This document shows positions 30,825 through 51,883 of a stretch of DNA of 64,000 bases, in pieces. The notes beneath the pieces are model-generated. The model searched no databases and was not told the origin of the DNA. It saw nothing but the letters and a program-made list of their open reading frames with translations. Where the stretch lies: the NCBI GenBank assembly GCA_965116915.1, contig OZ220739.1, forward strand, positions 630,864 to 694,863, in the 5' to 3' direction. How positions within the stretch are numbered: the first letter of the stretch is position 1; the number at the start of each line of letters is the position of its first letter. Both the position numbers and the translations under genes were made by a program. This stretch comes from Tepidiformaceae bacterium. GTDB lineage: Bacteria; Chloroflexota; Dehalococcoidia; Tepidiformales; Tepidiformaceae.

Positions 30825-31601
30825 ATGCCCTTCGTCCACGAAGATCGCGACTTCAACGAGCTGCTCAGCATCGTCGCCGAACGGCAGGGTCTTGCCATCG
30901 CGGCCGTTGAGAAGGACTACTGGGTCACGCACGTTCTCTGGGCCACCCTCGCTCAAGGATTCGACGTCTGGTTCACGGGCGGCACGTCGCTCTCCAAGGG
31001 CTTCGGTCTCATCAATCGCTTCTCTGAAGACCTCGATCTGAAGATAGAGCCTGGCAGCGCCACGGCCCTGCCAGGGGTGAGCGATTGGACGCGCGAGAGC
31101 CGCCGGGCGACTCAGCAGCGCCAGGCCTACTTCGAGGCCCTGTCGACGCTCCTGCGCGTGCCGGGTGCGGAGACTCACCTGACCGTTCCCGATACCGAGA
31201 GGCATTGGAGGGGGGCCAACCTGGAAGTGCACTATCAGGGGAGGCACCTCGAAGCTCTCGGTGTCCTAAGACCGTTCGTGTTGCTGGAGGTGGGGAGCGC
31301 GCGCGTTACGCCTTCCCTCGAGCGCGATTGCACCTCCTTCATCCACGACTATCTGGATGAAGAAGGCGAACTAGACAACTACGAGGACAATCGGCCCTGC
31401 TCCGTCCGCTGCCTTCACCCACTCGTGACCCTCATCGAGAAGCTAGACAGCTTGCACCGCCGAGCGCGACAGGCCGGCCGCGCCCCGGCTACCTTCGTCC
31501 GCCACTACGAAGACGCAGCCCATATCATCGCGGCGACGGCGGAACTACCGGCGCTTGAAGGCTACAGCGATGTGTCACCAAGCATCTCAAGCGGTGGGTA
31601 G
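30825..31601 (+). CDS. AbiEii/AbiGii-family nucleotidyltransferase toxin
   Basis: AVEKDYWVTHVLWATL...WFTGGTSLSKGFGLINRFSEDLDLKIEPG matches the DUF1814/AbiEii N-terminal and NTase motifs. Confidence 0.8.
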   Translation: MPFVHEDRDFNELLSIVAERQGLAIAAVEKDYWVTHVLWATLAQGFDVWFTGGTSLSKGFGLINRFSEDLDLKIEPGSATALPGVSDWTRESRRATQQRQAYFEALSTLLRVPGAETHLTVPDTERHWRGANLEVHYQGRHLEALGVLRPFVLLEVGSARVTPSLERDCTSFIHDYLDEEGELDNYEDNRPCSVRCLHPLVTLIEKLDSLHRRARQAGRAPATFVRHYEDAAHIIAATAELPALEGYSDVSPSISSGG

Positions 31602-35500: not shown

Positions 35501-36374
35501 CCTTCCGAATACGGGCGGCAATGGCCGCATTGGCAATCCCCTTCGGGTTGTCCGGCTGAATTCTGTGAGCGTGCTCAAGGTGGCCGGCGGCGGTGAGGGT
35601 ATCCTCGGCTGCCAGCAAGGCAGCTCCGAGATTTGTGAAGATGCGGAATCGGAGCTCCTTCGGTAGCTCGTCCGCCTGCTCCGTCAGTTGCTCAAGGTCC
35701 TCGCGAGCTGTGTCTGCGAGACCTCGGTTGATGAGGTCTCTTGCGAAGTCGATCTTCTTGACGATCTCGTTGTGCCGGGGGTCGGCGAAGCTCCCCGGCT
35801 CTGTCGGCTCAGCTAACAGGCCAGCCGTCTCAATTGAAGACTGCAACCGTGCAAACTTGTCCTCTAGCTCTGTCCCGAGAGAGTCGAACTGAGAGGCAAT
35901 TTCGCTCTTGGCGTCGGCGTGAAGTGTCTCGAGGCGGTTCGCCAGTGCAGGAAGCGCCTCATCGCCCCGGAAGAGAAGGGCCAGCATCTCCGCAAAGATC
36001 GCCACCACAAGCTGCGCGGCAACTTGTGCCTCTTCCCGTTCAGGACCCTGATAGAAGCCGCCTTCTTCAACGAATGAGCGGATGACCTCATCTTGCTCAA
36101 TGTCACGCTCGCCGGCATGCAGGCGCTCAAACAACCGCCTGAAGCCGTCACTCTGCGTCCACTGCTCGAGGGCCACCTCGGCTCCCTCGGCTTCAGGGAA
36201 TCGCCCGGCTATCGTCCTGATGGAGCGAGCTATCCCCTCTTCTTCTTTGGTGAGGAACGCGCGAAGGCCGTCGGTCGCAAAGTTGGCAGCGATGGCGGTG
36301 CCGAGTTGAGCCAACAGGGGTATCACTTCGGGCTGAACCAAATTGGGCTCCATATAGTGATCGTCCCTTAGCAT
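32538..36374 (-). CDS. Large TPR-repeat protein with a PIN-like C-terminal domain (1278 aa)
   Basis: Helical N-terminal ~200 aa, then many TPR-like Ala/Leu-rich repeats. The C-terminal region (about 32950-33450) carries PIN-type acidic positions: GIILDPLAL, VPQLVIEEI, KLVLVSDDLGLASVARHLGVEVV. An alternative start is ATG 36353. Confidence 0.7.
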   Translation of the reverse strand: MLRDDHYMEPNLVQPEVIPLLAQLGTAIAANFATDGLRAFLTKEEEGIARSIRTIAGRFPEAEGAEVALEQWTQSDGFRRLFERLHAGERDIEQDEVIRSFVEEGGFYQGPEREEAQVAAQLVVAIFAEMLALLFRGDEALPALANRLETLHADAKSEIASQFDSLGTELEDKFARLQSSIETAGLLAEPTEPGSFADPRHNEIVKKIDFARDLINRGLADTAREDLEQLTEQADELPKELRFRIFTNLGAALLAAEDTLTAAGHLEHAHRIQPDNPKGIANAAIAARIRKDSERAIELAVQAREAVAENSQATAVLLDELWEAERTDDLETLISTEPWLWGDRNCGITLATIRLRQSRFPEAVALCRTLAAANPEDAGVHLTLGQCLLKQAQAGLQLTGTITEASFAQLRSAETALLRAAERLDSTQLRTQKHDALVALANTHSLLGLPTEAMAELNRVLSESPSHPDANFMKGLLLLDKGEPAEARLALESSLEDRGEDVLGPLAGACIDSGDPIAAVNLLKGSFSLAEPEWEDVYRAILLNRAEANSGGEDSVGPAIEAALADRPNNARLLTLAAAHSDLNGSQEEAERLLLEARKQGNERDRREVSTRLAALYQRNGRFAEAADLLAEVVNDAPSHPAAGELLICLVNSQRLRDALAWAREIRKAQPHLPRLVIEAEARILERAGDTLAAIERLKELCSHVDSTAVDQVSLAAAQFRGGMPELACETIREIPIPELCADPMSLLRLAQLQLLLGEGGALDTALLVYRCGPDAPEAHLGYLGLFLACEASGPDPEAVSAGCAVLLKDELKEHWYLLLEDEETPRTANELKPAHPLATRLMGARVGDSIVLRQDLEDLSYDVVAIQSKFTRAFQEIHEEFSTRFPDHKGLSRVTGGDEGLAKVLTTIEQRDQFASEAERMYREGRLPFASFCSLLGRSALEGWRACTESRSIPIRCSAGTDEEASTASESLLEADGIILDPLALLTAHRLGLAAVIQDRFSHVAVPQLVIEEIQEAYYNTVLGPAPSGYLGKDADGRYALTEMTNEEWEQQRDFVRSVLSFAESLERLPSYRLLDESDAENLVEMLSWAGAGAVYAGEPETSAKLVLVSDDLGLASVARHLGVEVVNTQAVLSELRRAGVITAQDYFAQIESLVLLNYRFVRVDAATILGRLEANGYVTTDGTRAMVETLEGPECSDESAVSVAAELMVELARRAPDKVGLILGSVIEVLQSGRQGRPVPRMLASAVEARLSRDPVTSSWLVPAVLLHIAVSEGHQ

Positions 36375-36921: not shown

Positions 36922-39900
36922 TCACCAAGCACGAAGGCGATCAGGCTCAAACACCAACTCGGGAACCACGACCTCCCATGTCTCAACGCGCAGCCCCTCT
37001 TGGTGTTCCAGAGCAGTCAGCGCTCGCTCCCAAGTGACTATTGCTAGCACCGTGGCGTCGACACAGCGCATTCCTTGTGGCGGTTCGAACCCCTGGGCAA
37101 GCTGCCCCACGACCGTTCCCCGGCTGTCCAGCAGCGTCCAGCGCCCCTCCTGAGGCCGTACTTCAAGCTGGTCGCCTGATACCAGAGCACCGATTGCTTT
37201 GTGGATCCTGTGGTTGGGCGATCGGTATCCCGCGAAGCTGATAAACACGTCACGCAGGCTCACCCGGACGTATCGCCGGGCGAGCTCCGAAACCCGTAGC
37301 GAGGTCGCCGACGCTCCTTCCCGCTGGAGCACCGCTGGCAGATCGCGAAGAGGCTCTTGGAGAGGTTGGGCGCTAGCGAGCCGCATCAGGCTCAAGGTGT
37401 GCCGCGCCCTGGTCATCGCGACGTAGTAGAGGCGGCGTGGGGCGTCGGGGTCTTCACCTTGGCCTACGCGGTGCCAGCCACCGTCGAGCACGATCGCATG
37501 GTCGAACTCCAATCCCTTTGCTCGGTGGGCGGTCAGGAGCAGCAGGCCGTATTGCCGGCGTCGTGCCTCCCTGCTCCACTCGGCAAGCCACTCGATTGCG
37601 TGGTCGCGGGGCGTTTCCACGCCCCCGGTCTCCAACTCGTACTCCTCAATGGCCTCTCGCAGGAACGTGTTCCACGGGGTGTCCGGCTGCCCTGCCAGCC
37701 GAGCCTCAATTTCCGCCGTAGCAACCACCCCGGAGCCCCGTTCTCGCAGCCAGTTGATCAGCGCCTGAGTCTCCCGCAGCCGCCAGACGGACGAGATCTC
37801 CTCATGCGCCAGTTGGGAGGGGATGCCCTCGAGTTCGCAGAGGGTGCGTACAGGGTCCAGGAAGCTCCACTCGCGGGCGATGACGGCGCAACGGGACCAG
37901 TCCCAGTCCGGGTCGAGCGACGCCAGCCGTTGCAGCTCCGTGACGGCGGATCGCGCCTGTGAGAGCGGGGTGTCGCCCGCCGTGAGTATCTGGACCCGCC
38001 CCTGGGTTACAGGGTCACGACGCTCCCAGGTGCCGCCGGCATCTGCGTCGCGCCGAGCACGATCGACGCCGAGCGGGTGCCCGGCCTTCATGCGCTCCCG
38101 CGCCGGTGCGATCACGGCGTTCGCCGCCTCGACGATGTGCTTCGTCGAGCGGTAGTTTCCCGTGAGGTAGGACAGTCGAGCGTCGTAGTCCGCTTCGAAG
38201 CGACGGATGAACTCCACTGAGGCGCCAGCGAATGCATAGATGTTCTGGTCGTCGTCCCCGACTGCCAGCAGGGTCAACTTGCTGTCGGCGTCGTTCAGGG
38301 TCTTGCCGGCGAGGGCGGAGATGAGCTCGTACTGGGCTGGTGCTAGATCCTGGTACTCGTCGATGAGCACCCAGCGGAACCCAGCAAGAAGACGGCCCCG
38401 GACATCGTCCGCTTCCTCCGGCGGCAGGCCGTCGCCCCGCAATAGTGCGATCGCCTGCCTAAGGACTTCGTCGAAGTCCTCCGTGTCCGGCTGACCGGCA
38501 CGTCCTGCGTAGCTCGCTCCCAGCAGCCGCATGGCGAGCGCGTGGCAAGTCATGACCGTCACACCACGGGCGTCTGCGCCCACAAGCTCGACGAGCCGGC
38601 GACGTATCTCGACCGCGGCGTGACGGTTGTAGGTCAGGGCGATGATGCTGCGCGGGTTCTCACGTCGGACACGGAGCAGGAAGGCGATGCGGTGGACAAT
38701 CACACGGGTCTTTCCGGACCCCGGTCCGGCCAACACCAGCACATTGGTTTGTTCTCGCTCGTCGGCCACGATGGCGCGCTGGTCGGGGTTCTTCAGGTCC
38801 GCGACGACGGCTTGCCACGACTCCGCCGTCGTTTGTCGGCCCAATTCAGCGTCCCGGTTGGGCAACCACCGGTGCAGGAAGTCGGCCTCTGGCAGGCTGA
38901 AGTAGTCCATTGCTAGTTGCAGCGCGCCCGTCATCGAGCGCAAGCCTTGCTCGGCGTACTCCGCCATCACATGGATCTGGCGGACCTGCTCGTCGTAGTG
39001 GATTCTGAGGGATGCGAAGTCGGTGGGGCTGAAACTGCGCCGGCGGTCACTGTCGATGCGGACTGTCATCGCGGGACGGAAGACGGTCAGACCTCGGTTC
39101 AGTTGAATCACCTGCTGCTCGTGCAGCCACAGGAGCGCCCGCTCCATCAACTTGTCCGGGGTGCGCGCCCTGGCCCGGATCAAGAGGTCTTCCTGCAGGG
39201 CTCCAACCAACTTTCCAAGCGTGGTCTCGGTGAGCAGGTCGACGCCCTGGACACCGGGGGGCAACGTGCCGAGCAGGTGGTCAAGCAGCCGAGCAGCTGC
39301 GGCGCGGCGAAGCTCCGCAGTGCGCTCAAGGTCACTCCACTTTCGTCGCAGCGTGACCTGGACGGTTTCGCGGTCGCGACGGCGCAGGCTGAGACTTCCC
39401 CCCACCCCCGCTTCGTCACGCCCATCGGCCGCGATACTGCGCATGTGCTCCCACAGCAGCTCCTGCAGCACACCTTCATGTCCTTCGGCCTTGAGGCGGG
39501 CTGTCGCGTGCCGCAGGTGGAGCGGTGATGTGTCTCCTGGATCCAGATCGGGAGCCGCCTCACGCAGGAGGCCAATCAACGCGACCTCACGTGTCATTGC
39601 CGCTTGCAGGCGGTTTCGGGACGAGTTGGCCACGCCCGCGTGGACGAATGCTGTGATCGCCGTGTCGTTGCTGGCGATACCGAGATCGGCGAGGTCGTGG
39701 AGCGCCGCCCGCACATCGGCGGGACTCAACCCGACGGCCGACATGAGCTCGTCCGTGGAGAGACCCTGGTCGGAGGGTGCCTCGAATAGGATCTCCACGA
39801 CTTTGAGCAGCTTCTCTTGGTATGCCGCTGTGATCTGCGAACGGGCCAGTCGGGTCCGCGCGTCTTCGACCGAACTCACGCGCAGGGATGAAGGAAACAC

Positions 39901-42045
39901 CCGAACCTGGTTCTCTTCCCGCGAGACCAGCATGGCGTCCTCGAGCCAAGCGACCGCGGTACGAACCCGCGTGTCGTCGGTCGCTGAGTCCCGCTCGAAC
40001 TCCTTCTCCTCGTCCTCAAGGAGAATCTCCCCAGGCGTGGCTACGACCTCACCGTCGAGTCTGTGCCTGCGGTCCAGGCTGCGGAGGGCTCGCAGGACCG
40101 CCTGAATCTCGTGTCGCTGCAGCCGCGAGCGCGCTGCCAGGCCGAACTGCCGCTCCACGTCCTTGGCCGTGTAGAGAAGGATGCAGCGGGCGGCCTTTTG
40201 GTCCCGTCCCGCCCGTCCCGCCTCCTGCAGGTAGTTCTCCAGCGACCCTGGAATGTCGGCGTGGATCACGACGCGAACATCGGGCTTGTCGATGCCCATG
40301 CCAAACGCGCTGGTGGCGGCGATGACCTTCAGTTCCCCGCCAATGAACCCCTCCTGGACACTTCGCTTGGTGTCGGGGAGGAGTCCAGCGTGAAAGTGGT
40401 CGGCGGACAGGCCCTTGTCACGCAGGAAGGCCGCCATCTGTTCAGTGCGCGCGCGGGTCGAGCAGTACACGATGGCGCCGCCCCCGGTGTCCTCCGTCAA
40501 CTCCGCTTCTAGCAGCTGGTGCACGCTGGCGAACTTCTGGTCGTCGCTGGTCTCGACCACGACGAACTCCAGATTCGTCCGTTGAGAGCCGGCGTCGAAC
40601 ACCTGCAGCTCGATGCCGAGGCTGTCCTGGAAGTACTTCACGATGTCGGTGGTCACGTCGGGCTTCGCGGTTGCCGTCAGACACCAGACAGGCGGAGGAG
40701 CGGCGTCCCCGGCCCGCTCGCGGATGAAGCGGCCGATGTACCGGTAGTCGGGGCGGAAGTCGTGTCCCCACTGCGAGAGGCAATGCGCCTCGTCCACCAC
40801 CCACGCGCCAACTTCGCGCTGTTCCAGCGCCCTGCGGACGGAGACACTTCGAAGCTGCTCAGGCGAGATCAGGAGGATGCCGGCGTCCCCGAGGCGAACG
40901 CGGTCAAGCGCGTCGCCTCGTTCGGGCATCGATAGCATCCCGTTGACGGTCACGCCTGCGCTGATTCCCCGCCTCTCCAGCCCTGCAACCTGATCCGCCA
41001 TGAGGGCCACCAGCGGTGAAATCACGACAGTGAGCGCACCCGTCTTCGCGTATCGCGACAACGCTGGCACCTGGTAGCACAGCGACTTCCCGGCACCGGT
41101 CGGCAGAATGGCGAGGAGGTTTCCTCCGGCCATGGCGGCCTCGACGACCTGCTTCTGGACGGGTTGCCCGTCATCGTCGGCAGGTTCGGCTCGAAAGTCG
41201 TCGAAGCCGAACCACCGCTTCAGCTCCTTGCGGGCGTCGTGCCTCTCCCGGCACCACTCGCATCCCGGCTCGATGCAGGCGCGGTCGCGGAGGCGCTCCA
41301 CGAGCCGGTCCGCTTCGGGGAACTGGTGGCGGACCCACGGGGGCATCACCGAGTTACCCTCCGCCACCGAGAGCCATGCGAGAGTGTAGGCCAGAGGCCA
41401 TGCATGCACTTGGGCATCGGCCAGTGCACCCCGCGAAGCCGGGGAGCACGCGCGCCCTTCGAGGCAGGCGAGTGTGGCGGCCCTTCCCTCTTCCTCGTTC
41501 GGACGGCTCGCACCGCGCACCCGCGAGAAGGCGAGATCGAAGCCCGCCATCCCCTCGTCAAGGGTGGTCAGCCAGTGCCAAGCGGTCAGCAACTGGGGAC
41601 TGGCGCGACGGAGCGCTTCGTACTGGTCGGCGAAGAGTTCAAGCGCCAGGAGGGAGTCTAGGTGAGGGTCGTTCAGGCGGCCGCGCTTGAGTCCGCCTTC
41701 CTGGTAGTGCTTGACCAGGTGGTGGTAGGGATTCGCGGGGTGAGCCAGCGGACTCAAACGGAGGGTGTCGATGACGGGCAGCCCGAGGAGGCGGAGGTCG
41801 GGATGCGCGGCGCGAAGGTGGGGAAGGTCGAACGCGATGATGTTGTGACCGAGCAGGGCGTCCACGCCGGCTCCGAGTTCATCAAGAGCGGAGAGCGCCT
41901 CGGGCAACGTCTGCGATGTCCCTGGGAGTGTTACCGGCGTATCGGCGTCAGTGCGCACTCCGCCCAGCGCGTAGATGCCTCCATCCCCCGGACTTACCTC
42001 GAGGTCCACGGAGAGGCAGCGGATGAGGAGGGGGGTGTAGTCCAT
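36922..42045 (-). CDS. Triple-fusion protein: DEDD (DnaQ-like) 3'-5' exonuclease + RecQ helicase + UvrD/Rep-type helicase (1707 aa)
   Basis: Exo motifs SVDLEV, GHNIIAFDLPHL, PHLDSLLALELF (about 41480-42045). RecQ: ILPTGAGKSLCYQVPAL, VVDEAHCLSQWGHDFRPDY, ATSAFGMGIDKPDVRVVIH, QEAGRAGRD (about 39900-41200). UvrD: VLAGPGSGKT, LIDEYQDL, VGDDDQNIYAF, GNYRST, HRAKGLEFD, YVAMTRAR (about 37400-38800). Confidence 0.9.
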   Translation of the reverse strand: MDYTPLLIRCLSVDLEVSPGDGGIYALGGVRTDADTPVTLPGTSQTLPEALSALDELGAGVDALLGHNIIAFDLPHLRAAHPDLRLLGLPVIDTLRLSPLAHPANPYHHLVKHYQEGGLKRGRLNDPHLDSLLALELFADQYEALRRASPQLLTAWHWLTTLDEGMAGFDLAFSRVRGASRPNEEEGRAATLACLEGRACSPASRGALADAQVHAWPLAYTLAWLSVAEGNSVMPPWVRHQFPEADRLVERLRDRACIEPGCEWCRERHDARKELKRWFGFDDFRAEPADDDGQPVQKQVVEAAMAGGNLLAILPTGAGKSLCYQVPALSRYAKTGALTVVISPLVALMADQVAGLERRGISAGVTVNGMLSMPERGDALDRVRLGDAGILLISPEQLRSVSVRRALEQREVGAWVVDEAHCLSQWGHDFRPDYRYIGRFIRERAGDAAPPPVWCLTATAKPDVTTDIVKYFQDSLGIELQVFDAGSQRTNLEFVVVETSDDQKFASVHQLLEAELTEDTGGGAIVYCSTRARTEQMAAFLRDKGLSADHFHAGLLPDTKRSVQEGFIGGELKVIAATSAFGMGIDKPDVRVVIHADIPGSLENYLQEAGRAGRDQKAARCILLYTAKDVERQFGLAARSRLQRHEIQAVLRALRSLDRRHRLDGEVVATPGEILLEDEEKEFERDSATDDTRVRTAVAWLEDAMLVSREENQVRVFPSSLRVSSVEDARTRLARSQITAAYQEKLLKVVEILFEAPSDQGLSTDELMSAVGLSPADVRAALHDLADLGIASNDTAITAFVHAGVANSSRNRLQAAMTREVALIGLLREAAPDLDPGDTSPLHLRHATARLKAEGHEGVLQELLWEHMRSIAADGRDEAGVGGSLSLRRRDRETVQVTLRRKWSDLERTAELRRAAAARLLDHLLGTLPPGVQGVDLLTETTLGKLVGALQEDLLIRARARTPDKLMERALLWLHEQQVIQLNRGLTVFRPAMTVRIDSDRRRSFSPTDFASLRIHYDEQVRQIHVMAEYAEQGLRSMTGALQLAMDYFSLPEADFLHRWLPNRDAELGRQTTAESWQAVVADLKNPDQRAIVADEREQTNVLVLAGPGSGKTRVIVHRIAFLLRVRRENPRSIIALTYNRHAAVEIRRRLVELVGADARGVTVMTCHALAMRLLGASYAGRAGQPDTEDFDEVLRQAIALLRGDGLPPEEADDVRGRLLAGFRWVLIDEYQDLAPAQYELISALAGKTLNDADSKLTLLAVGDDDQNIYAFAGASVEFIRRFEADYDARLSYLTGNYRSTKHIVEAANAVIAPARERMKAGHPLGVDRARRDADAGGTWERRDPVTQGRVQILTAGDTPLSQARSAVTELQRLASLDPDWDWSRCAVIAREWSFLDPVRTLCELEGIPSQLAHEEISSVWRLRETQALINWLRERGSGVVATAEIEARLAGQPDTPWNTFLREAIEEYELETGGVETPRDHAIEWLAEWSREARRRQYGLLLLTAHRAKGLEFDHAIVLDGGWHRVGQGEDPDAPRRLYYVAMTRARHTLSLMRLASAQPLQEPLRDLPAVLQREGASATSLRVSELARRYVRVSLRDVFISFAGYRSPNHRIHKAIGALVSGDQLEVRPQEGRWTLLDSRGTVVGQLAQGFEPPQGMRCVDATVLAIVTWERALTALEHQEGLRVETWEVVVPELVFEPDRLRAW

Positions 42046-42293: not shown

Positions 42294-43070
42294 TTAGTCA
42301 GACCGCGGGGCGGCTGTTGCAGCGACAGCCGCTTTGTGGGCGGCCTCGATTCTAGTGAGCGCCGAGCTCACTAGCGCCAGCACTGCCTCCGTCTCTTCCG
42401 GGTTTGGCGGTACGTCGTTGTGGGCAACGGGATTGCGGCTCAACGCGTAGAGGCCCTTGAAGAGATGCAGGTAACCTTCGCGCTCATGCGCATCCAGGAA
42501 CTGTGTGGTGACGGATCCTCCGCCGAAGAGTCGGCCTGCGAGGCTGTCGCCGTCTGTACCGGCCGGGAGGTTGAACATCTCTACCATGCGAGTCTTGAAG
42601 ATGGCCCACGCCTCCCTAACTGCGGCGTTCAGTTGACCGTTGGAGACATGAGGCTCCAGGCGGGAGTTGAGAGCTTGGTCGGAGGGCGAGTTTACGTTGT
42701 ACCACTCCTCAAACATGCCCAGAGCCTTGGGCATGTCGATGCTCACGATGTCGACTGGGTCATGTGCACAGCTCCCGGGAGCGCTCACCTGAAGGTAGTG
42801 GTTGATGAACCACAGGTGTCGCTCCAAGTGTGTGTGCTGTTCCACTTGGCTCTTGACCTCAGGGGGCAGCGCTGACTTGAACTCGTCGACGGCTCCCCGC
42901 AGCAGAATCGTCTGGTTGGTGAGGCCCGGCAAGTGGGCAGCAAAGACGCTACGAGCATCTGCGGCGACTTGCTGGTCACCGACACACTTAGACAGCGCCA
43001 CCGCGAGCCTGGTGGCCTCAGCCGACGCAGCCATTGCGAGGCTATAAACATGAGCCCGGTAAGTGAGCAT
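42294..43070 (-). CDS. TIGR02391/Hypoth_Ymh-like protein
   Basis: The C-terminal half (AVREAWAIFKTRMVEM...YLHLFKGLYALSRNPVAHNDVPPNPEETEAVLALVSSALTRIE) matches the conserved ...RNP.AH... core of that family. Same strand as the giant helicase, 249 bp upstream of it. Confidence 0.6.
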   Translation of the reverse strand: MLTYRAHVYSLAMAASAEATRLAVALSKCVGDQQVAADARSVFAAHLPGLTNQTILLRGAVDEFKSALPPEVKSQVEQHTHLERHLWFINHYLQVSAPGSCAHDPVDIVSIDMPKALGMFEEWYNVNSPSDQALNSRLEPHVSNGQLNAAVREAWAIFKTRMVEMFNLPAGTDGDSLAGRLFGGGSVTTQFLDAHEREGYLHLFKGLYALSRNPVAHNDVPPNPEETEAVLALVSSALTRIEAAHKAAVAATAAPRSD

Positions 43071-43460: not shown

Positions 43461-43655
43461 GTGCATATGGCAACGTCACCGGAACTGGGTGAGAGTGAAC
43501 TCGAGAAAGTTCGGGATCTCTTAGATCGCGCGACTGGGGAGGAGCCCGGCGCCCCCGAGTCCCCGCCAGCTGACCGCACATTGACCCTCTTGTCGAAGCG
43601 GGACGACTTGCGGACCCTGGTCGGGCGGATGATAGCCGATGCGCTTCTCGATTGA
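43461..43655 (+). CDS. Small hypothetical ORF (62-64 aa) leading the SMC-SIR2 operon
   Basis: GTG 43461 or ATG 43467. Its 3' end overlaps the ATPase ATG (43639) by 17 nt. Short and acidic, so its coding status is uncertain. Confidence 0.35.
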   Translation: MHMATSPELGESELEKVRDLLDRATGEEPGAPESPPADRTLTLLSKRDDLRTLVGRMIADALLD

Positions 43656-45990
43656 CGCGGAGACTAGTGGCGGCCTGAGGGTCATTCCCACCATCCCGAA
43701 TATAGATAGATGTTGGCTGGAGGGCAGGAACGGCATCGGCAAGACCGTTGCCGTGCGACTCCTCGAACTTGTCGCCGGAAGGCAGCCTTTTCGGAGCGAC
43801 GGAGATGCTTGGGCTGCGCTGAAGGAGAATCTCGGCCCGACGACCGTCGTCATTAGTGAATTCCCTTCCACAGCCGAGATAGAGTCCATCCGTATTGAAC
43901 TCACACCCGACGAGTGGCCAGCTGACCCTGTCCCCCTGACGGCCGATCTGGGCCCAGTCTTCATAGATGGGAAGCAGCGCGACCACCACGCTCTACGCGA
44001 GTACTTTGACCTAGTGCGGATCGGAGGTGACGAAACTGTTGTCTCACAGCTAAGCAATCTAATTGGCGACGACTATGCCCTTGCGGCGCGCTCCAGAAGG
44101 TCGCTGGAGGACCTAGCTAGAGACGCAGGGTCAGTCCTAAACCCACTGATCATTGACATTGACCGGCTCTCCGAACCCGAGTTTGTGGCTGCTGACGAGG
44201 CTGTCCGAATCACCACAGAGGAGCTGGCCAGCGTTGACACCAAAGTCGAGAAGGCCTCAGAGCGGCAACTCGATCTTGAAGAGTTGATCAGGTTATCTGA
44301 TCTGCGGCAGCAGCAGGTGCGGCTTGGACCGGAGATTCGAGCATCACTCGATGCGGCCAAGTCGAGAGTGCGGGAGCTTACCGAAGCGAAGGAAGCGCTG
44401 ATGGAGCAGCTTCGGGCGTTAGTGCCAAGGCGCGCCGCCTTGCAGCAGCTCCAGCGCGATCTGGAGGAGCTGCAGAGGCGGCGGGACGGGCGCCGTAATC
44501 GGGCCGCGCGCTCCCACTCGACCGCTCAACAAGCCATGCAGGAAGCCGGTGTCGCAATCGACACCGTGGACTCGGTGTACCAACAGGCGCTCGATAAGCG
44601 AACCGAACTGCGCGGCGATCGCGCTGCCTTAGCCTCCCTTCCGGACGTACTTAAGCTGATCAACGATGCGCGATCACCCCTCGCTGATGTCGAGGGGTCA
44701 AGCCTTGACGACGAGGTTCTTGCAGTTATCGACAGCAGCGCACGGATGACAACCTCGGACCTGCGCGCCGGGCTCGATGCGCGAAGTGACGAATTGAAGC
44801 GAGATGTCTCATACGATCAGCTGGCGAAGATCGATGAGGATATCGCCAGGTCAACATCCCACATCAAACAGCTTTCGAATGTTCGCTCACTGATCCTAGA
44901 CGCGGACCGAAAAGCAACCCTCCTGCTTGAAGTCGAACGTGAGATCGAAGCAAAGGACGACCAGATTCGAGACTCGTCAGGAGACGAGTATTCCGAGGTG
45001 TCCGAGCGGCTCCATGTGGTGGAGTCGCAGATTGCCGAGGAGATCAAGCGTGAGGCTGAATTCCGAGTACATCTTGACTTGCTCAATCGAAGTGGAGGCG
45101 CATCTGCCTTGGACAGCAAGGTGGCGGACCTGGAGCAACGCCTGGACATCGCGGCCTCCGGGGCCAAGGATGCTCTTGGCGTTACCGTAGCGCTTCGTCA
45201 AGACCTAGCCGCTGAACAGCAACGTCTCCGCTACGAGCTCTCGTCCAAGAAGACACTACACCGTGACTTAGAGGACCAGCTCGTCCGGGCCCTTCAACTC
45301 ATCGCGCGGGGCGCCGACTACCAATGGCTCAGGGAGAGTGTGCCAGCTGGCACCATCCCACCAGTCAAGGCAGACCGCAGGGACGCGCTTCGACGGCTGG
45401 TGCGCCTGGCGGACGCGGCCCGACGCGTGCAGTCGGACGTTGACGCTTCGCTCAATCAAGTCGCCGCTGTCGAGGCGGCTCTAGACGCAATCAAACACTC
45501 GATAGCCACACACGCCGACCCAAGCCGGAATCGCTATGCCGAGAGCCTAATTGAGTGGTACCAGGGACAGATGGCGGACTACCTCTCCAACGAAGACATC
45601 CGTGAGGCCATATTCGATGGAGGCGAATTCCAGCAATTCGACCTCGTGAATGGGTTCGTGTCCTGGCGCACGAAGACGGGTGAGCAGAGGCGACGACCGA
45701 TCGAAGCGTTCTCGAGTGGGGAGCGAGCGTTTGCATACATGCTGGCTGCGATCCTGAGCCATGGTAGGTCCACGGCGCAGTACCGCGTATTCGTCCTCGA
45801 TGAGTTCGGTGCGTTCGTTGAGCAGAGCAGGAGAAGCCGTCTCTGGCACTTCCTCGACCAGCGGCTCCTGAAGGAAGGTCTGGCAGCTCAAGTCGTCGTG
45901 ATTTTGCCTTCGCAGGCGAGTCTGCCTGGAGCCTTCGACGGTGAACTGTTCGAGGCCGAAGACTACATTGCCAGGGACGCCGGGCCGTGA
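43639..45990 (+). CDS. SMC/Rad50-like ABC ATPase with a long coiled-coil insertion (783 aa)
   Basis: Walker A EGRNGIGKT at the N-terminus, ~450 aa of heptad-rich coiled coil, then signature-like FSSGERAF and Walker B YRVFVLDEFG at the C-terminus. The stop overlaps the next GTG (GTGA at 45987-45990). Confidence 0.8.
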   Translation: MRFSIDAETSGGLRVIPTIPNIDRCWLEGRNGIGKTVAVRLLELVAGRQPFRSDGDAWAALKENLGPTTVVISEFPSTAEIESIRIELTPDEWPADPVPLTADLGPVFIDGKQRDHHALREYFDLVRIGGDETVVSQLSNLIGDDYALAARSRRSLEDLARDAGSVLNPLIIDIDRLSEPEFVAADEAVRITTEELASVDTKVEKASERQLDLEELIRLSDLRQQQVRLGPEIRASLDAAKSRVRELTEAKEALMEQLRALVPRRAALQQLQRDLEELQRRRDGRRNRAARSHSTAQQAMQEAGVAIDTVDSVYQQALDKRTELRGDRAALASLPDVLKLINDARSPLADVEGSSLDDEVLAVIDSSARMTTSDLRAGLDARSDELKRDVSYDQLAKIDEDIARSTSHIKQLSNVRSLILDADRKATLLLEVEREIEAKDDQIRDSSGDEYSEVSERLHVVESQIAEEIKREAEFRVHLDLLNRSGGASALDSKVADLEQRLDIAASGAKDALGVTVALRQDLAAEQQRLRYELSSKKTLHRDLEDQLVRALQLIARGADYQWLRESVPAGTIPPVKADRRDALRRLVRLADAARRVQSDVDASLNQVAAVEAALDAIKHSIATHADPSRNRYAESLIEWYQGQMADYLSNEDIREAIFDGGEFQQFDLVNGFVSWRTKTGEQRRRPIEAFSSGERAFAYMLAAILSHGRSTAQYRVFVLDEFGAFVEQSRRSRLWHFLDQRLLKEGLAAQVVVILPSQASLPGAFDGELFEAEDYIARDAGP

Positions 45991-46952
45991 GCGAGGTACG
46001 TGCTCCGTCGGACATCTTCGGCGTGCCGTTCGTCCTCCGGAGACAGGATGCTGAGCAACTCGTCGACAGTCTTGGCCAGCTTTGGATCACCCAAACGGGT
46101 GAGCCGATGACCGGTCTCGACGAGGATCTCAAGCTCCTGTTCTCCAAGCTCTTTAATCCCAAGACAACTGGCGCTCGGCTCCGCGATGTCCTGAATTCTT
46201 TGCCGCCAGCGCCGATGGTCCGTTCTCGCTTCCTGAATCCTCCGCTGATTATCGAAGCCGGCCCGTCCACACTCGTGACCCCTGAGGGTCGGGCCGTATA
46301 CGACCTGCTAGGTAACTTGCTGCAGGAGTCGGACGAGGATCCGATCGGCCTCGATCCAATCGATGCATTTGCCTTGGTGAGCCTGACTCACCAACGTTAC
46401 CGGGAAGTAGGAGTGAAGCGGCTCGAGGACGCGGTCGGGCTCCTGGGGGGACGGGCGGAGGGGCTTCGGCTACCATCGATTGCACTCCTGCTGTTCCTTC
46501 TGGTGAACGGATCAACGTCTACAGCAACGGCCATCCGCAGACCGAGCGACAGTGATGAACTGAGCCGACTGGATGACGCCGTCGCGAAGGCCATTTCGGC
46601 ATTTGCCGACACTCTCAGTTCACGTGCGCGCGATCCGAGTCACTTCTCGCTTTACTCCGGATACGCGGTAACCGAAGCGCGGCGACGCCTCGGTCAGACT
46701 ATGGGTCCGACTCCCGACCAAATCTACGTGGATGACAGGCACCGGGACGCCGTGATTGAGCGCGTTGCCAGCGAGCTCCGGCGTAGTCAGCGCTCGCCTG
46801 AAACCCGGAACGTCATGGCTGCATTCGACAACCTCGTTTCAGCCTACCGAGAGGAGAGGCCGACCCTCGCATCGCTGGGTGTCACGCACGAGAGCCGTGT
46901 AGAAACAGCAAGACTCCGCGAGCAGTTGGAGCGCGCACTTGGAGACCCGTGA
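45987..46952 (+). CDS. Hypothetical protein (321 aa), middle gene of the SMC-SIR2 operon
   Basis: Translationally coupled on both sides (GTGA overlap upstream, 14-nt overlap downstream). No family recognised. Confidence 0.65.
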   Translation: MSEVRAPSDIFGVPFVLRRQDAEQLVDSLGQLWITQTGEPMTGLDEDLKLLFSKLFNPKTTGARLRDVLNSLPPAPMVRSRFLNPPLIIEAGPSTLVTPEGRAVYDLLGNLLQESDEDPIGLDPIDAFALVSLTHQRYREVGVKRLEDAVGLLGGRAEGLRLPSIALLLFLLVNGSTSTATAIRRPSDSDELSRLDDAVAKAISAFADTLSSRARDPSHFSLYSGYAVTEARRRLGQTMGPTPDQIYVDDRHRDAVIERVASELRRSQRSPETRNVMAAFDNLVSAYREERPTLASLGVTHESRVETARLREQLERALGDP

Positions 46953-48495
46953 TGTGCTGTGCCTGCTATCCGAGCTGCTAGGGGATCCGGAGGAGGACGA
47001 TCGCAACACATCCGTTGTGCCCGTTGTGATCGATGACTTCGCCGGACATGGCGATCTCGTGCGGGCCGCTGCGCACGCTGTCGGGGCTTCGCTAATCGTC
47101 GCCTCGGATGTCGTAGATGGGGTCCGTGGAAGACGCGATCACACGCTGAAGGCCCGCATCGAGGAGTACCTACGGGTTCCGCGTTCGGGGGGCGAAGACT
47201 CTCGAGTCTCCATCCTGGCGGACCAAGGCATCGTGCATGCGAGGATCGACGACCAGACCGAACTCGCGAGCAGATCCGAGAGAGAGGTTGCTGGGCTAGC
47301 TTCAGCTCTGTTCTCAGAAGAACTGCAGACGAGCAGCCTTGCGTTCATTGTCTACAACGAGACCGTACTGGACGACGAGTGGGCCGAAGCCATCTGGCGC
47401 CTCTTCGGCAGCATCGATGGGACGCGGTTCCGGGCGGTCAAGCGCTTCATCTTGCTCATTGAGCGATCTGGCGAGCACACGCCGGATCACCATCTTGACT
47501 CCGAGCCTACCGTCCAGTTCTTCGTTCGGTCGTCGGGACTGACGCGCCGGAAGCCGTGGCTCGTAGACCTTGCCGAAGTCCGCTACATAGCGGAGCAGGC
47601 TGCCAGCAATGGCCTCGTCCTGTTCCTCGGGGCCGGTTTCTCGAGTTCGTCGGGGCTTCCGCTCGGCAACACACTTCGCGACGATGCGCTGCGAGCATTC
47701 CTAGCTATGCCAGAGGCAGGGTTCGACGAGCTCGCTTCGGCGTTCTTCGAGTACCTCCGGGCCAACAGACGTCTGCTCGAGGTCGAGCATCAGATGCCAT
47801 CCGACGAGTTCAACAGCCAGCTCACGCTTGAGCGGGTCCTCCGCGAAGAGATCTGGAGGAGCGGTGCCGACGATAGTCCGACACTGCGTGGTTTCGAGAA
47901 CATGAACGACATTGCTTTGAAGAACAGAGGTCCCGCCGTCGCTGGCCTGCACAACGTCTTGAGGCTCATTCCCAGGACTGTCGTGATCACTGTGAACTTC
48001 GACACCCTCGTAGAGGCTGAGGACGGCGATGTGCACACGATGGTCACAGAGCAAGAGTTCAGGGACGGCCGGGACTACCTGGATACGTACCTCGGCGAAC
48101 CCGACAATCCCGTCCCCGTCTTGAAGCTCCATGGTTCAATTCGGTCGAGAGAGACGATCATTGCCACGGTCGACCAGACCGCTCAGGGTCTATCCACAGA
48201 GAAGGAAGACTGCATTCGTGCCGTCCTCGAGACCAACCGCAAGGTGCCATGGGTCTACGTCGGATACAGCATGCGCGACCCGGATCTTTGGGGCATTCTC
48301 GAATCCCGGCTCGTCGCTGATCGTGCCGACGAATACTGGGTTAGCCCATTCGAGGATCCGAACGCTTTCGAGTGGTCCGGGTTGCACCGGCAGTTTGGTC
48401 AAGATGGGCGGACGTTCTGGCAGAGATGCATCACGCTGACTGCCGATAGGTTCTTCGAGCAGCTCCTAGCTGCCTGGGCTGCACAGCACGACTAG
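46939..48495 (+). CDS. SIR2-family (SIR2_2-type) protein with a ~210-aa unknown N-terminal domain
   Basis: GLVLFLGAGFSSSSGLPLGNTL, VITVNFDTLVE and VLKLHGSIRS follow the defence-type SIR2 pattern (GAG.S...G.P ... N.D ... KLHGS). TTG start at 46939; alternatives lie nearby. Confidence 0.8.
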   Translation: METRDVLCLLSELLGDPEEDDRNTSVVPVVIDDFAGHGDLVRAAAHAVGASLIVASDVVDGVRGRRDHTLKARIEEYLRVPRSGGEDSRVSILADQGIVHARIDDQTELASRSEREVAGLASALFSEELQTSSLAFIVYNETVLDDEWAEAIWRLFGSIDGTRFRAVKRFILLIERSGEHTPDHHLDSEPTVQFFVRSSGLTRRKPWLVDLAEVRYIAEQAASNGLVLFLGAGFSSSSGLPLGNTLRDDALRAFLAMPEAGFDELASAFFEYLRANRRLLEVEHQMPSDEFNSQLTLERVLREEIWRSGADDSPTLRGFENMNDIALKNRGPAVAGLHNVLRLIPRTVVITVNFDTLVEAEDGDVHTMVTEQEFRDGRDYLDTYLGEPDNPVPVLKLHGSIRSRETIIATVDQTAQGLSTEKEDCIRAVLETNRKVPWVYVGYSMRDPDLWGILESRLVADRADEYWVSPFEDPNAFEWSGLHRQFGQDGRTFWQRCITLTADRFFEQLLAAWAAQHD

Positions 48496-49812
48496 CCGCT
48501 CGCTCAAGGCATGCTGGTGCCGAACACCATTATTGACCCACCTGGCACCGCGATGCCGGATAGTACTCACGTTCACGGGCCGCAAGCCGAGCTCTTGAGC
48601 AAGCTGCGCCAGCAGCCCAGGCGTGTCGATGTACACGCCGTAAGGCGCACTGTCACCAACTACGAGGGCGATCCGTGCGCCGGGCCGTACGCATTTGCGC
48701 ATGTTCACGAGCACGCGGCTCATACCTTCAAAGTATGGCCCGATCACCCGATCGTACTCCTTGCCTCGGGGCCGCCGCCTGCGTTCCGCCTCTAAGCGAC
48801 TGCTGAGAGATTCGAGGACCGATCCAGTGTGCGGTGCTATGGCAGCCACGCGCGCCATCGACTCAGAGGCCGCAGCACTGCGGGCCTGCTGAGTCGATGC
48901 CGTGAGCATCCCGGCTCTAACCCGCTCAACCATCTCGGACCAAGTGCGAGCTACCCCCCAAAAGTAGAGCTCAAGCCGGGTTGCATCAGCGTAGTCGAAG
49001 TTATTGAGGTAAGGGGGCGATGTCACGACTGCGTCGGCGGGTTCATCTCCGAGGACCCGAACCCAGTCCCCGAGTCGTCGAGCATCCCCGCGCAGCACAA
49101 TTGACCCTGACTCACGGGACGACTCGCGAAGGTCGGCCGCCATCCACTCCGCCCTTCGCAGAAACGCTCGCACCGGCTGGGCGATCCGTGGCTTCCTTCG
49201 GACCGCGGGGCGCTGGTAGGGCCAACGAACCTGGACGCTTGCGCAGTCCCGCAGAGCACCTAGCAGGGACCATTTGAGATACCGAGTTGTCGCTCTACGG
49301 GGATGCGCCTTCAATTGGTCCCGGATGCTGACCAGTTCGCGCAGGGAGTCCTCGTCGAAGCTGCGAGCCACCAGATCCGTCTCGCGCGAGATGTCCGCCT
49401 CAAGAATGTCGCAAGCAACGCGCTGCGCGTCGTCAACGATGCGCTCCGGCTTCGCGAAGGCCTGAGTCTTGAGCTGTGCCAACTCGGCAATCTCCGGGTG
49501 CACCTCGATACCGGCGTACCGGTATCCCTGCTCAGCCCCAGCTCTCCAGCCAGTTGCAGCGCCGACAAACGGATCAATGAGTAGATCACCGGGTCGTGCG
49601 GCCACAGCCTGTAGCGCAGCCCCGAGGGCTGTCGGCGAGAACCCTGCGGGATACCGAAACCAGCGATCGAAGGGCACCTGCCGCGGACCGTTGGAAGCTC
49701 CACCACTGCTTTTAAAATTCACCGCGGCGCTCCTAGTCCCGCCACGGCGAATAATATGGGATGCTCCGCGTTTCCTCCAGTCTGCAGCAAGAACCCCTGC
49801 ACCGTCCGTCAA
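48466..49812 (-). CDS. DNA methyltransferase (N6-adenine or N4-cytosine; motif I before motif IV)
   Basis: AdoMet motif LLIDPFVGAATGW and catalytic VVTSPPYLNNFDY. The 3' end overlaps the SIR2 gene 3' end by 30 bp (convergent). The start is uncertain (TTG 49812 or GTG 49722). Confidence 0.75.
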   Translation of the reverse strand: MTDGAGVLAADWRKRGASHIIRRGGTRSAAVNFKSSGGASNGPRQVPFDRWFRYPAGFSPTALGAALQAVAARPGDLLIDPFVGAATGWRAGAEQGYRYAGIEVHPEIAELAQLKTQAFAKPERIVDDAQRVACDILEADISRETDLVARSFDEDSLRELVSIRDQLKAHPRRATTRYLKWSLLGALRDCASVQVRWPYQRPAVRRKPRIAQPVRAFLRRAEWMAADLRESSRESGSIVLRGDARRLGDWVRVLGDEPADAVVTSPPYLNNFDYADATRLELYFWGVARTWSEMVERVRAGMLTASTQQARSAAASESMARVAAIAPHTGSVLESLSSRLEAERRRRPRGKEYDRVIGPYFEGMSRVLVNMRKCVRPGARIALVVGDSAPYGVYIDTPGLLAQLAQELGLRPVNVSTIRHRGARWVNNGVRHQHALSERLVVLCSPGS

Positions 49813-50055: not shown

Positions 50056-50439
50056 ATGTCATCTCGCCGACCGACAAAGCAGGGCGGGGAAGAGAGAGGG
50101 CAAGAGGCCGACTACGACGCTTGGTTGGAGGAGGCCGATGCGCGCAGCGCTCAGCTTGAGAGCGTTGTCACGGTACTTCATGCCGAGTTGGACAAACTTG
50201 CCCGCAAGTCGCCGACCGGGCAGGTGAGCGATCTGATGGTTCAGCGAGTCAACAAGGCCATTCGCGAGTCACACGCCCTCATGGACCGGGAAGGCGACGA
50301 CTTTCTCCAAGAGGTGACTGAGTTCATCGCGGCCGGCGACAACCCTGAGAACCGAGACGTGCTTCTTGTCCTCGCGGAGCTGAAAGCTGCCTTGTCGCGT
50401 TTTCGTTCCGGGCACAGAGCCGACTGGCTTCGGCACTAA
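50056..50439 (+). CDS. Hypothetical helical protein (127 aa)
   Basis: ATG preceded by AAGGGGG. Ends 1 nt before the next gene start. No family recognised. Confidence 0.55.
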   Translation: MSSRRPTKQGGEERGQEADYDAWLEEADARSAQLESVVTVLHAELDKLARKSPTGQVSDLMVQRVNKAIRESHALMDREGDDFLQEVTEFIAAGDNPENRDVLLVLAELKAALSRFRSGHRADWLRH

Positions 50440-50440
50440 C

Positions 50441-51883
50441 TTGGCTCTACTGAACCAAGACTTCGGGCTTCCTTTTGGCCAAATTGAGGTCGATTTTGTA
50501 GTTCCCGATCTCACTCAGGACTTGCCTCTCTGCATTGATCCTTTTCTGCTTTACCGTAGCCAAGATCCGGAGTTACGCAATCTTCACCAGCAAGTCATTA
50601 GCGTCTTTAATCACGGCATAGAACTCTTCAAGTTGGGCAAAACTCAGGACCTTGCTAGGCTAGTCCAGTTTCCGGAGGTTGATGAGATCGGCTTTGGCTA
50701 CTCTGAAGGGGCTATTCGTGGACGAGGTCTAGGCCAGACCATGAACGGTATCTTGGTCGAGCTTCTAGGAAGCGTTGGGGAGATATTTGATCGAGGGATT
50801 CGACATATCGAAGAGCTTCAGTTGCTTTCGGTTCGCATAGGGCCAGACCTTGTGAGCGACACGGTAGCCAACTTGATGAAGGATTTTCTTGTCCAATACA
50901 CACAAAGGCAATCCGAGCTGCACGGCATACCAGTCAGTTCGGGCGTGCCGGTAAATCACTTCTTTGACTTCGATAGTTTCGAGTGGTCAGACGGATACTT
51001 CGATCTGCCACGAAACCCCAACTCCGGGCTGCCGGTGCTCTTGGTACCCCGGCGTGTCGTCCGCCTACTTCCCTGGATAAACTATGCTGACTACCAACGG
51101 AATGAATTCCGCGAGTTCCTAAAGCCCAAGGCACCGCCGTCGCAGCGACGGCGACTGGAACCCGTGGGTGAACCGCTAGATCTTTCCTCCCGCGCAGGCA
51201 AGGCGACAACGTACAAGCCAGAGGTAGTCCGAATTACGCGTCGCAATCTTGAACTTGTCGACAAGTATGTTGAGCGTAAGGAGCGCGAGAGCGCAGGCGC
51301 CGAACCGACACTGCCTCCCGGTCGGTCCGAGACTGCCGCCGTAAGAGAGGAGGGGAACCGCCTGCTCGAGGAGCTTAGGCAGTTACCGCCGGGTCGGGAA
51401 GCTGCCACTGACTACCAGCAACACGTGCTCCGAATTCTGACGTTTGTCTTTGGGCCAGAGTTGACCGACGGGAGGCTTGAGGAGGCGACCGTGCACGGCA
51501 CGGAGCGCCGAGACATCATTTTCACAAACGAGTCGACCAAGTCGTTCTGGATGTATGTACGACAGCATCACGGATCCATTTTGCAAATGTTCGAATGTAA
51601 GAACACCAAAGGCCTGAATACGGCGGACCTGAATCAGACAGCAACCTACTTGGGCGCTCGATTGGGGACGCTTGGAATTGTTGTTACCCGGACAGCACCG
51701 GCAAAGAGTGTCTTGCTAAAGGCCTACTCGATTCATAACGACTCAGCGGGAGAAAGCCGAAAGACAATTCTCATCCTTTCAGACGATGATCTCGGCAGCC
51801 TAGTGCTGGCACGCCAACGGGGAGAGCCGCCGTCGAGGGTCGTTCAGAAGGTATACCGGGACTTCAAGCTCAGTTGCCAATAG
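50441..51883 (+). CDS. Hypothetical protein with a C-terminal PD-(D/E)xK nuclease-like motif (480 aa)
   Basis: TERRDIIFTNESTKSFWMYVRQHHGSILQMFECKNTKG gives a D ... E-x-K arrangement. TTG start. Divergent from the methyltransferase gene. Confidence 0.6.
   Translation: MALLNQDFGLPFGQIEVDFVVPDLTQDLPLCIDPFLLYRSQDPELRNLHQQVISVFNHGIELFKLGKTQDLARLVQFPEVDEIGFGYSEGAIRGRGLGQTMNGILVELLGSVGEIFDRGIRHIEELQLLSVRIGPDLVSDTVANLMKDFLVQYTQRQSELHGIPVSSGVPVNHFFDFDSFEWSDGYFDLPRNPNSGLPVLLVPRRVVRLLPWINYADYQRNEFREFLKPKAPPSQRRRLEPVGEPLDLSSRAGKATTYKPEVVRITRRNLELVDKYVERKERESAGAEPTLPPGRSETAAVREEGNRLLEELRQLPPGREAATDYQQHVLRILTFVFGPELTDGRLEEATVHGTERRDIIFTNESTKSFWMYVRQHHGSILQMFECKNTKGLNTADLNQTATYLGARLGTLGIVVTRTAPAKSVLLKAYSIHNDSAGESRKTILILSDDDLGSLVLARQRGEPPSRVVQKVYRDFKLSCQ

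Follow-up and report, generated by a model that had tools for sequence, protein, structure and literature searches.

What kind of system is encoded at positions 43461-48495 of this 64,000-nucleotide (nt) stretch of contig OZ220739.1 from a Tepidiformaceae bacterium (the window, hereafter), where a small open reading frame (ORF), an SMC/Rad50-class ATPase, a protein of 321 amino acids (aa) and a SIR2 effector follow one another in overlapping succession? An initial annotation, made from the letters alone, saw Lamassu-like logic in a permuted layout and left a choice between a divergent Lamassu subtype and a distinct SMC-SIR2 system. We favour, at a probability of about one half, a five-gene anti-phage or anti-plasmid system that is not Lamassu, in which DNA methylation would provide the self mark and the SMC-like ATPase would control a SIR2 enzyme that hydrolyses nicotinamide adenine dinucleotide (NAD+), that is, an NADase. 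The five genes, four placed by ORF scan and the fifth by PADLOC and Pfam matches, are the following:

43461-43655, plus strand: ORF 1, small acidic protein (64 aa from a GTG start; 43467-43655 and 62 aa from an ATG start according to a gene caller)
43639-45990, plus strand: ORF 2, SMC/Rad50-class ABC ATPase (783 aa)
45987-46952, plus strand: ORF 3, accessory protein (321 aa)
46939-48495, plus strand: ORF 4, SIR2 protein (518 aa)
48466-49812, minus strand: DNA methyltransferase of type A, convergent with ORF 4 (maximal ORF, 448 aa)

The ORF scan of the window reproduced the four co-directional plus-strand genes of the initial annotation together with their overlaps of 17 nt (small gene and ATPase), 4 nt (GTGA, ATPase and 321-aa gene) and 14 nt (321-aa and SIR2 genes), a layout that supports the single operon proposed there. 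What that annotation overlooked was the conserved fifth gene, and the unit is larger than described there. A second gene call, made on a separate assembly that covers the same stretch independently, differs at three starts. The small gene would begin at ATG 43467 (62 aa), the methyltransferase at GTG 49722 (418 aa) and the SIR2 gene at GTG 46954 (513 aa), the last of which turns the 14-nt overlap at the third junction into a 1-nt gap. Homologues with the N-terminus MxTxxVLxLL favour the longer SIR2 form. A scan for promoters and terminators returned no promoter-like site and one terminator-like site, which is under the expectation from shuffled sequence.

Conservation of the cassette and its methyltransferase

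All 39 related loci that we fetched, from Chloroflexota, Actinomycetota and Acidobacteriota, carry the same cassette in the same order of small gene, ATPase, 321-aa gene and SIR2 gene, with the order of the last three judged in loci with enough flanking sequence. The neighbourhood is repeated in Micromonospora, in a Chloroflexota metagenome-assembled genome and in a JGI metagenome, and a scan of one genome per species gave 31 loci distributed over Dehalococcoidia, Acidimicrobiia, many Actinomycetota, Acidobacteriota and Thermoanaerobaculia. There are many SIR2 homologues of about 520 aa, and the layout is kept at down to about 26% SIR2 identity. It is also kept in the most distant ATPase homologues (26-28% identity), including a gene of 59-81 aa that overlaps the ATPase start. 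When all ORFs of at least 100 aa were clustered without supervision, only five families were conserved, namely SIR2 (39 loci), the ATPase (38), the 321-aa protein (38) and methyltransferases of types A and B, the rest being shadow ORFs. The recurring order of the ATPase, 321-aa and SIR2 genes is far beyond chance. SIR2 is the sole effector across the 39 loci, and the clustering found no second effector, nuclease or phosphatase conserved in the cassette. Two loci are decayed: in L019 (CAVWOZ010000036.1) the ATPase, 321-aa, SIR2 and methyltransferase genes are all fragmented, while L035 (CAVPYM010000015.1) has fragmented ATPase and SIR2 genes and yielded no methyltransferase. The two loci are consistent with a loss of the components together.

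The extra leader ORF described by the initial annotation is a genuine gene under purifying selection. We take it as such because its ratio of nonsynonymous to synonymous substitution rates (dN/dS) against the closest relative is 0.27 (the ATPase has 0.22 and the 321-aa gene 0.18), because its product is acidic in 27 of 29 candidates (pI 4.1-5.1), and because its sequence clusters span phyla in an all-against-all comparison. Nearly every locus has an ORF of 50-67 aa that overlaps the beginning of the ATPase gene, and genes of 59-81 aa were called independently at this place on other contigs. The gene evolves fast, with identities to three relatives of 73, 47 and 35% compared with 83, 57 and 49% for the ATPase, and dN/dS against three relatives is 0.27, 0.16 and 0.49. 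The protein had no match in Pfam, PADLOC or NCBIfam, and an iterative hidden Markov model (HMM) search seeded with its close homologues did not extend the family.

The methyltransferase of the window overlaps the 3' end of the SIR2 gene by 30 nt in convergent orientation. It matches the PADLOC model MTase_II over its full length (E 2.1e-48) and the Pfam family N6_N4_Mtase, with two motifs that can be placed as follows (AdoMet, S-adenosylmethionine):

49549-49575, minus strand: AdoMet-binding motif DPFVGAATG, methyltransferase type A
49009-49020, minus strand: motif IV, SPPY, methyltransferase type A

We surveyed the loci with this protein and with methyltransferases from upstream of other cassettes; in 35 of 39 loci the cassette has a methyltransferase directly beside it. 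Co-inheritance of a methyltransferase with effector genes, as in methylation-based defence, is the rule here. Of the four loci in which none was found, three (L002, L027 and L030) lie on contigs cut at the cassette and the fourth is the decayed L035. Two types occur, type A (about 430 aa) in the window and 24 loci and type B (about 335 aa) in 12 loci, and they present their motifs in opposite order: type A has the AdoMet-binding motif at the N-terminus followed by SPPY, and type B, as compared with L012:2339-3370, has SPPY followed by the AdoMet-binding motif at the C-terminus. Every intact copy that abuts a cassette, of either type, reads SPPY or SPPF at motif IV and none has Asp/Asn-Pro-Pro-Tyr; an unrelated methyltransferase, located on a mobile element at a distance of 3.7 kb, reads DPPY. 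The SPPY motif suggests N4-cytosine methylation.

The placement of the methyltransferase varies, though it always abuts the cassette. Sometimes it converges on the SIR2 gene, with an overlap of 3-32 nt at the end of the latter; elsewhere it is immediately upstream of the small gene, on one strand or the other; and a single locus has it co-directional with the SIR2 gene, which it overlaps by 22 nt. A neighbour-joining tree of the 321-aa protein keeps the type B loci together in a clade that is almost coherent, from which we conclude that the methyltransferase has been inherited along with the cassette and exchanged about once. Because it was retained through several rearrangements and one replacement by an analogous enzyme, its linkage points to a functional requirement rather than chance adjacency.

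Predicted domains of the SIR2 protein, the ATPase and the 321-aa protein

Two domains can be assigned in the SIR2 protein, the C-terminal one by Pfam and the N-terminal one by AlphaFold2 and Foldseek, with three SIR2 motifs in the former:

46939-47583, plus strand: effector N-terminal domain, aa 1-215
47596-48495, plus strand: SIR2 (SIR2_2) effector domain, PF13289, aa about 220-518
47629-47643, plus strand: GAGFS, aa 231-235
47989-48003, plus strand: TVNFD, aa 351-355, with the putative catalytic Asn353
48124-48138, plus strand: KLHGS, aa 396-400, with the putative catalytic His398

The match to PF13289 scored 48.4 bits (E 1.3e-12) against a cutoff of 24.5, and the residues G231, A232, G233, S235, T351, N353, D355, K396, H398 and G399 are invariant across 38 SIR2 homologues. 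The motifs align with GAGLS, TTNYD and KMHG of ThsA. By profile, the nearest solved relatives of the domain are the Sir2 protein associated with prokaryotic Argonaute (pAgo), the KomC NADase and ThsA, and the nearest PADLOC profiles are Aga_SIR2 (33 of 38 SIR2 proteins) and ThsA (21 of 38). Judged by profile and motifs, the domain is a bona fide defence-type SIR2_2 with intact catalytic residues. The initial annotation had recognised such a domain from its GAGFS, NFD and KLHGS motifs and had named beforehand the alignment of the catalytic residues as a point on which it might fail; they are in place and invariant, in the 38 sequences as against ThsA.

That annotation was also right to delimit a domain of some 210 aa ahead of SIR2, which it called unknown and for which a fold can be proposed. 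The AlphaFold2 model of this N-terminal domain is an alpha/beta fold of high confidence (predicted local distance difference test, pLDDT, 92.7; predicted template modelling score, pTM, 0.89). Its best Foldseek matches are the cohesin SMC head 6qpq (E 7e-4, probability 1.0) and the retron protein PtuA 9nnh (E 9.6e-4), with EttA and nucleotide-binding domains of ABC transporters also found in a range of E 7e-4 to 1e-2. The loop at the P-loop site, between a strand at residues 25-31 and a helix at residues 34-47, reads IDDFAGHGD instead of GxxxxGK[ST], and there is no Walker A motif. H185 and R204 are nearly invariant. As a lead from the model only, the domain is probably a degenerate, non-catalytic P-loop/ABC-head-like fold, and we propose that it could serve as a docking or regulatory domain.

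The ATPase is laid out as in the SMC/Rad50 class, with Walker A in an N-terminal head, the signature and Walker B motifs in a C-terminal head, and a long coiled coil between the two:

43723-43746, plus strand: Walker A, GRNGIGKT, aa 29-36, in the N-terminal head (about aa 1-150)
44641-44823, plus strand: conserved apex of about 60 aa in mid-coil (about aa 335-395; consensus ...GLG...), within a coiled coil of about 470 aa that separates the head halves and whose profile matches coiled-coil proteins only
45709-45723, plus strand: signature motif, FSSGE, aa 691-695, in the C-terminal head (about aa 620-783)
45796-45810, plus strand: Walker B, LDEFG, aa 720-724, in the C-terminal head

The split-head ATPase of the initial annotation is confirmed by these motifs, with a coil slightly longer than the 450 aa estimated there. 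In an alignment of 28 homologues G29, N31, G34, K35, S692, G694, D721, E722 and P757 are invariant. Past Walker B, in the stretch where the H-loop region is expected, P757 is the sole invariant residue (aa 755-758, ILPS, nt 45901-45912). A full-length profile searched against PDB gave only coiled-coil noise (myosin and the like), and the search was repeated with separate head profiles. The N-head then gave P-loop matches only and the C-head was closest to SMC6 (E 3.5e-6), with Rad50 also matched (E 4.5e-3). Together the head searches returned only SMC6, Rad50, RecF and generic ABC ATPases; none of the chains bore the name LmuB. Pfam AAA_21 scored 26.2 bits, slightly below its cutoff, and PADLOC gave a weak AriA match to the C-head of the window ATPase. 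The protein has a single Cys, no CxxC and no zinc hook, and the conserved apex stands in place of a hinge. Neither a hinge domain or CxxC zinc hook at the apex nor a kleisin or Mre11/SbcD partner was recognised.

The 321-aa protein belongs to a small and sharply bounded family. It has 84 homologues, none of them named, and an exhaustive profile search of 1.84 billion representatives gathered 317 clusters at 50% identity, the best 150 of which are mostly about 310-350 aa long, with some shorter fragments. The AlphaFold2 model is mostly helical and confident (pLDDT 90.8). Foldseek found no PDB entry (to April 2026) matching it at E <= 0.001 (best E 0.59, TM-scores below 0.25) and none among the viral models of BFVD (best E 0.18), and the sequence had no match in PDB. 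None of the PADLOC models, LmuC included, matched any of 53 family members, and no model in PADLOC v2, Pfam or NCBIfam covers either this protein or the small one. Searches of plasmid and phage collections with the 321-aa protein found no homologues, and no copies of the system. We considered a kleisin, a KITE protein, LmuC and an SbcD C-terminal domain as identities for this protein and found support for none of them, as a confident model had no match in PDB or BFVD and the sequence none in PDB. For the question raised by the initial annotation, whether the protein might be kleisin-like, the Foldseek comparison gave no kleisin-like match. We regard it as a probable system-specific accessory protein, with an orphan fold in the predicted model.

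A candidate mechanism and its alternatives

Onto the observed gene content, order and overlap, the conservation across phyla, the intact motifs, the methyltransferase linkage and the defence-island context we placed a mechanism by analogy, drawing on restriction-modification, BREX and MADS for the self mark, on Lamassu for effector release and on ThsA and SPARSA for NADase output. It is in this way that we infer the formation of a complex, its trigger, the type of methylation, the NADase activity and the abortive outcome. The methyltransferase would mark the host genome as self. A dimer of the ATPase, with the 321-aa and acidic subunits, would bind or scan DNA, and unmarked DNA would be the trigger. 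An ATP-dependent rearrangement would then free or oligomerise the SIR2 effector, which would probably be held on the complex by its pseudo-ATPase N-terminal domain. Finally, the SIR2 domain would hydrolyse NAD+ and the infected cell would stop growing. Stated in full, this is methylation-gated NAD+ depletion through an SMC-like complex with two orphan proteins and an effector docked by a pseudo-ABC head, joining the sensing of restriction-modification and BREX to an abortive output; we offer this fuller version tentatively, as a proposal a little short of even odds.

Several points weigh against this mechanism. Every step of it rests on sequence and predicted structures, and the dependence on methylation is drawn from gene linkage alone. 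SPPY is no proof of N4-methylcytosine. The resemblance of the effector N-terminal domain to ABC heads is weak, with TM-scores of 0.3-0.48. Because the conserved positions of the ATPase C-head in the alignment of 28 homologues include no histidine, a classical H-loop may be lacking, and ATP may be turned over in an atypical way. No recognisable sequence-reading DNA domain was found in the components beyond the methyltransferase. The use of two unrelated methyltransferase families fits an enzyme working in trans more easily than a structural subunit, and one must then ask how the same motif would be recognised by the sensor. The methylation-based systems that are known either degrade the invader or block it, and suicide by NAD+ depletion in answer to all unmethylated DNA would be an unusual pairing with them. 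Lastly, our libraries were PADLOC v2 (2023), Pfam, NCBIfam and open-access papers, in which a more recently named system could be missed.

The reading closest to that of the initial annotation is a divergent Lamassu-type system, in which the SMC-like ATPase would sense DNA ends or replication intermediates and free Sir2, and the methyltransferase would be unrelated or accessory. Lamassu, too, combines an SMC ATPase with one or two small partners and a toxic effector, and Sir2 is one of its varied effectors (PMC12663957). LmuB is moreover the most frequent PADLOC match in the ATPase family (PDLC03859 in 20 of 28 members, best E 1.5e-10, at most 36 bits), with two members matched from Walker A to the signature motif, and the ATPase resembles short LmuB in having no zinc hook. 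However, the window ATPase itself had no PADLOC match to LmuB at E <= 0.1, most matches in the family fall in the coiled coil, and when the heads were searched separately LmuB was found in only 5 of 28 N-heads and 1 of 28 C-heads, with AriA and mad3 favoured instead. The other components fared no better: LmuC models matched 0 of 53 members of the 321-aa family, whose model also lacks a PDB match, and did not match the small protein, while LmuA models matched 1 of 38 SIR2 proteins (E 0.0046). Lamassu operons run in the order effector, LmuC, LmuB, and LmuA has its effector domain at the N-terminus and its LmuB/LmuC-binding domain at the C-terminus (PMC12663957). Here SIR2 is C-terminal, behind a P-loop/ABC-head-like domain, the gene order is reversed in every locus, as the initial annotation had noticed for the window, and the effector is constant in 39 loci instead of interchangeable. 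The retention of the methyltransferase in 35 of 39 loci, through rearrangements and one replacement of its family, also speaks against an accessory role. We consider this account unlikely and, with PADLOC run on the window and on all members, full-length and as heads, set Lamassu membership aside. The comparison with LmuA, LmuB and LmuC models that the initial annotation had suggested therefore went against its Lamassu-like logic, as there is no homology to LmuA or LmuC and the similarity to LmuB lies mostly in coiled coil; of the two alternatives that it left, the distinct SMC-SIR2 system is the better supported.

Besides hydrolysing NAD+, SIR2-fold enzymes are known for ADP-ribosyl transfer, and the system might be linked to methylation without SIR2 being a bulk NADase. 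The effector could then ADP-ribosylate DNA or protein or, acting with the ATPase, block replication in the manner of BREX, or the whole could be mainly an addiction module that stabilises the island through post-segregational killing. The methyltransferase linkage resembles that of restriction-modification, BREX and MADS (an eight-gene operon that uses methylation to tell self from non-self, and whose mad5 could not be deleted on its own), and relatives of the cassette lie on mobile elements or beside BREX genes. We nevertheless find this doubtful, since the closest characterised relatives of the SIR2 domain, ThsA, the pAgo-associated Sir2 and KomC, deplete NAD+, and no second effector, nuclease or phosphatase is conserved in the cassette. 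Most SMC/Rad50 ATPases are chromosome-maintenance or repair proteins, and the C-head is closest to SMC6 and Rad50, so one could also think of a module, either housekeeping or encoded by an element, that maintains or partitions DNA. This is very improbable, for the system is patchy and rare (the 317 clusters given above), lies in a low-GC defence island, includes a SIR2_2 effector and a methyltransferase partner, and has no conserved nuclease partner of the Mre11 or SbcD type.

If the five-gene, methylation-gated reading is true, it joins epigenetic self-marking with suicide by NAD+ depletion, which are usually treated apart, and asks how an SMC-like machine could read the methylation state. 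It would provide a second SMC-plus-Sir2 architecture, apparently outside Lamassu, with a bearing on the way in which immunity came to employ SMC/Rad50 ATPases. The orphan fold of 321 aa and the small acidic protein would each stand for a new protein family, and the effector would be a case of fusion to a degenerate ABC-head domain. Cultured actinomycetes carry the system, among them Micromonospora sp. NPDC005599 (L001; JBEXCT010000001.1, 504052-521638), Microbispora sp. CA-102843 (L013), Modestobacter sp. SSW1-42 (L024) and Blastococcus saxobsidens 67B17 (L032), which makes it experimentally testable.

Genomic context and relation to known systems

The cassette lies within a low-GC island of about 45 kb (window positions 7000-52000) with a GC content of about 0.50-0.66, compared with 0.68-0.73 in the flanks. 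The island holds many other defence genes, and no tRNA genes were found in the window. Neighbouring features include:

28143-29675, minus strand: PDC-S28 helicase (E 4.6e-164)
30240-30818 and 30825-31601, plus strand: a 192-aa ORF, followed by the AbiEii toxin gene of AbiE
32538-36374, minus strand: 1278-aa protein with TPR, GreA/GreB C-terminal and PIN domains (Pfam PIN-TPR-GreABC; no PADLOC match)
36922-42045, minus strand: fusion helicase, a single polypeptide of 1707 aa joining a RecQ/DpdF-like DEAD-box helicase (PADLOC DpdF, E 1e-118) to a UvrD/GajB-like one
42294-43070, minus strand: Hypoth_Ymh protein, between the fusion helicase and the cassette
50056-51883, plus strand: PDC-M36B/A gene pair

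The gene for the fusion helicase lies on the strand opposite to the cassette, directly upstream of it, and the N-terminal 260 aa or so of the protein have no domain assignment. Elsewhere, the cassette adjoins PglZ and BrxL in L039 (1-4161), and a PLD-SNF2 protein and an MmeI-type methyltransferase in L003 (1-3566); these BREX-type neighbours occur in unrelated hosts. Other relatives are found on elements that carry an integrase, a relaxase, ArdC or IS110.

Full-text searches of open-access papers gave at most reviews, and no description of a system that combines SMC, SIR2 and a methyltransferase. Among known systems, BREX, MADS and Type I and Type III restriction-modification share with the cassette a methyltransferase inherited together with an ATPase-containing effector module, and some relatives of the cassette adjoin BREX genes. 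Unlike in these systems, there is no nuclease, the effector is SIR2, and the ATPase is SMC-like rather than a helicase or AAA+ protein. Clustering of the ORFs showed that PglZ, BrxC, BrxL and PglX are not conserved in the cassette, and neither is any of mad1-mad8. The matches to mad3 (10 of 28 C-heads, best E 1.8e-4) and to mad2 (E 2.1e-4) are weak and generic, and we rejected MADS as an identity.

With the SIR2 proteins of Thoeris (ThsA), SPARSA (Sir2), Kongming (KomC) and DSR, the effector shares a SIR2_2 domain with the motifs GAGxS, TxNxD and KxHG. It differs from these NADases in having no SLOG, APAZ/pAgo or HerA partner, in its distinct N-terminal domain, and in its coupling to an SMC-like ATPase and a methyltransferase. 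Two further likenesses concern ATPase heads: AriA of PARIS is the best PADLOC match of the ATPase C-head in 15 of 28 members, and the effector N-terminal domain weakly resembles the head of PtuA from Septu and retrons. Those systems have nuclease partners (AriB with its TOPRIM domain in PARIS, PtuB or HNH proteins in Septu and retrons), whereas here we find a coil of about 470 aa, SIR2 and a methyltransferase. PARIS was rejected on account of this coiled coil and of the lack of an AriB/TOPRIM gene.

Lamassu, in particular its subtypes with a Sir2 effector, is also among the closest systems. Both systems have a split-head ATPase of the SMC/Rad50 family with coiled coils, as well as small accessory proteins, an effector that is or may be Sir2, and a place in defence islands, and the ATPase lacks a zinc hook as short LmuB does. 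The cassette differs from Lamassu in the reversed order of its genes and of the effector domains, in its invariant effector, in the additional small acidic protein and in the obligatory methyltransferase. On the sequence comparisons made here, the system would work in the manner of SMC-based effector release and appears not to be a member of Lamassu itself.

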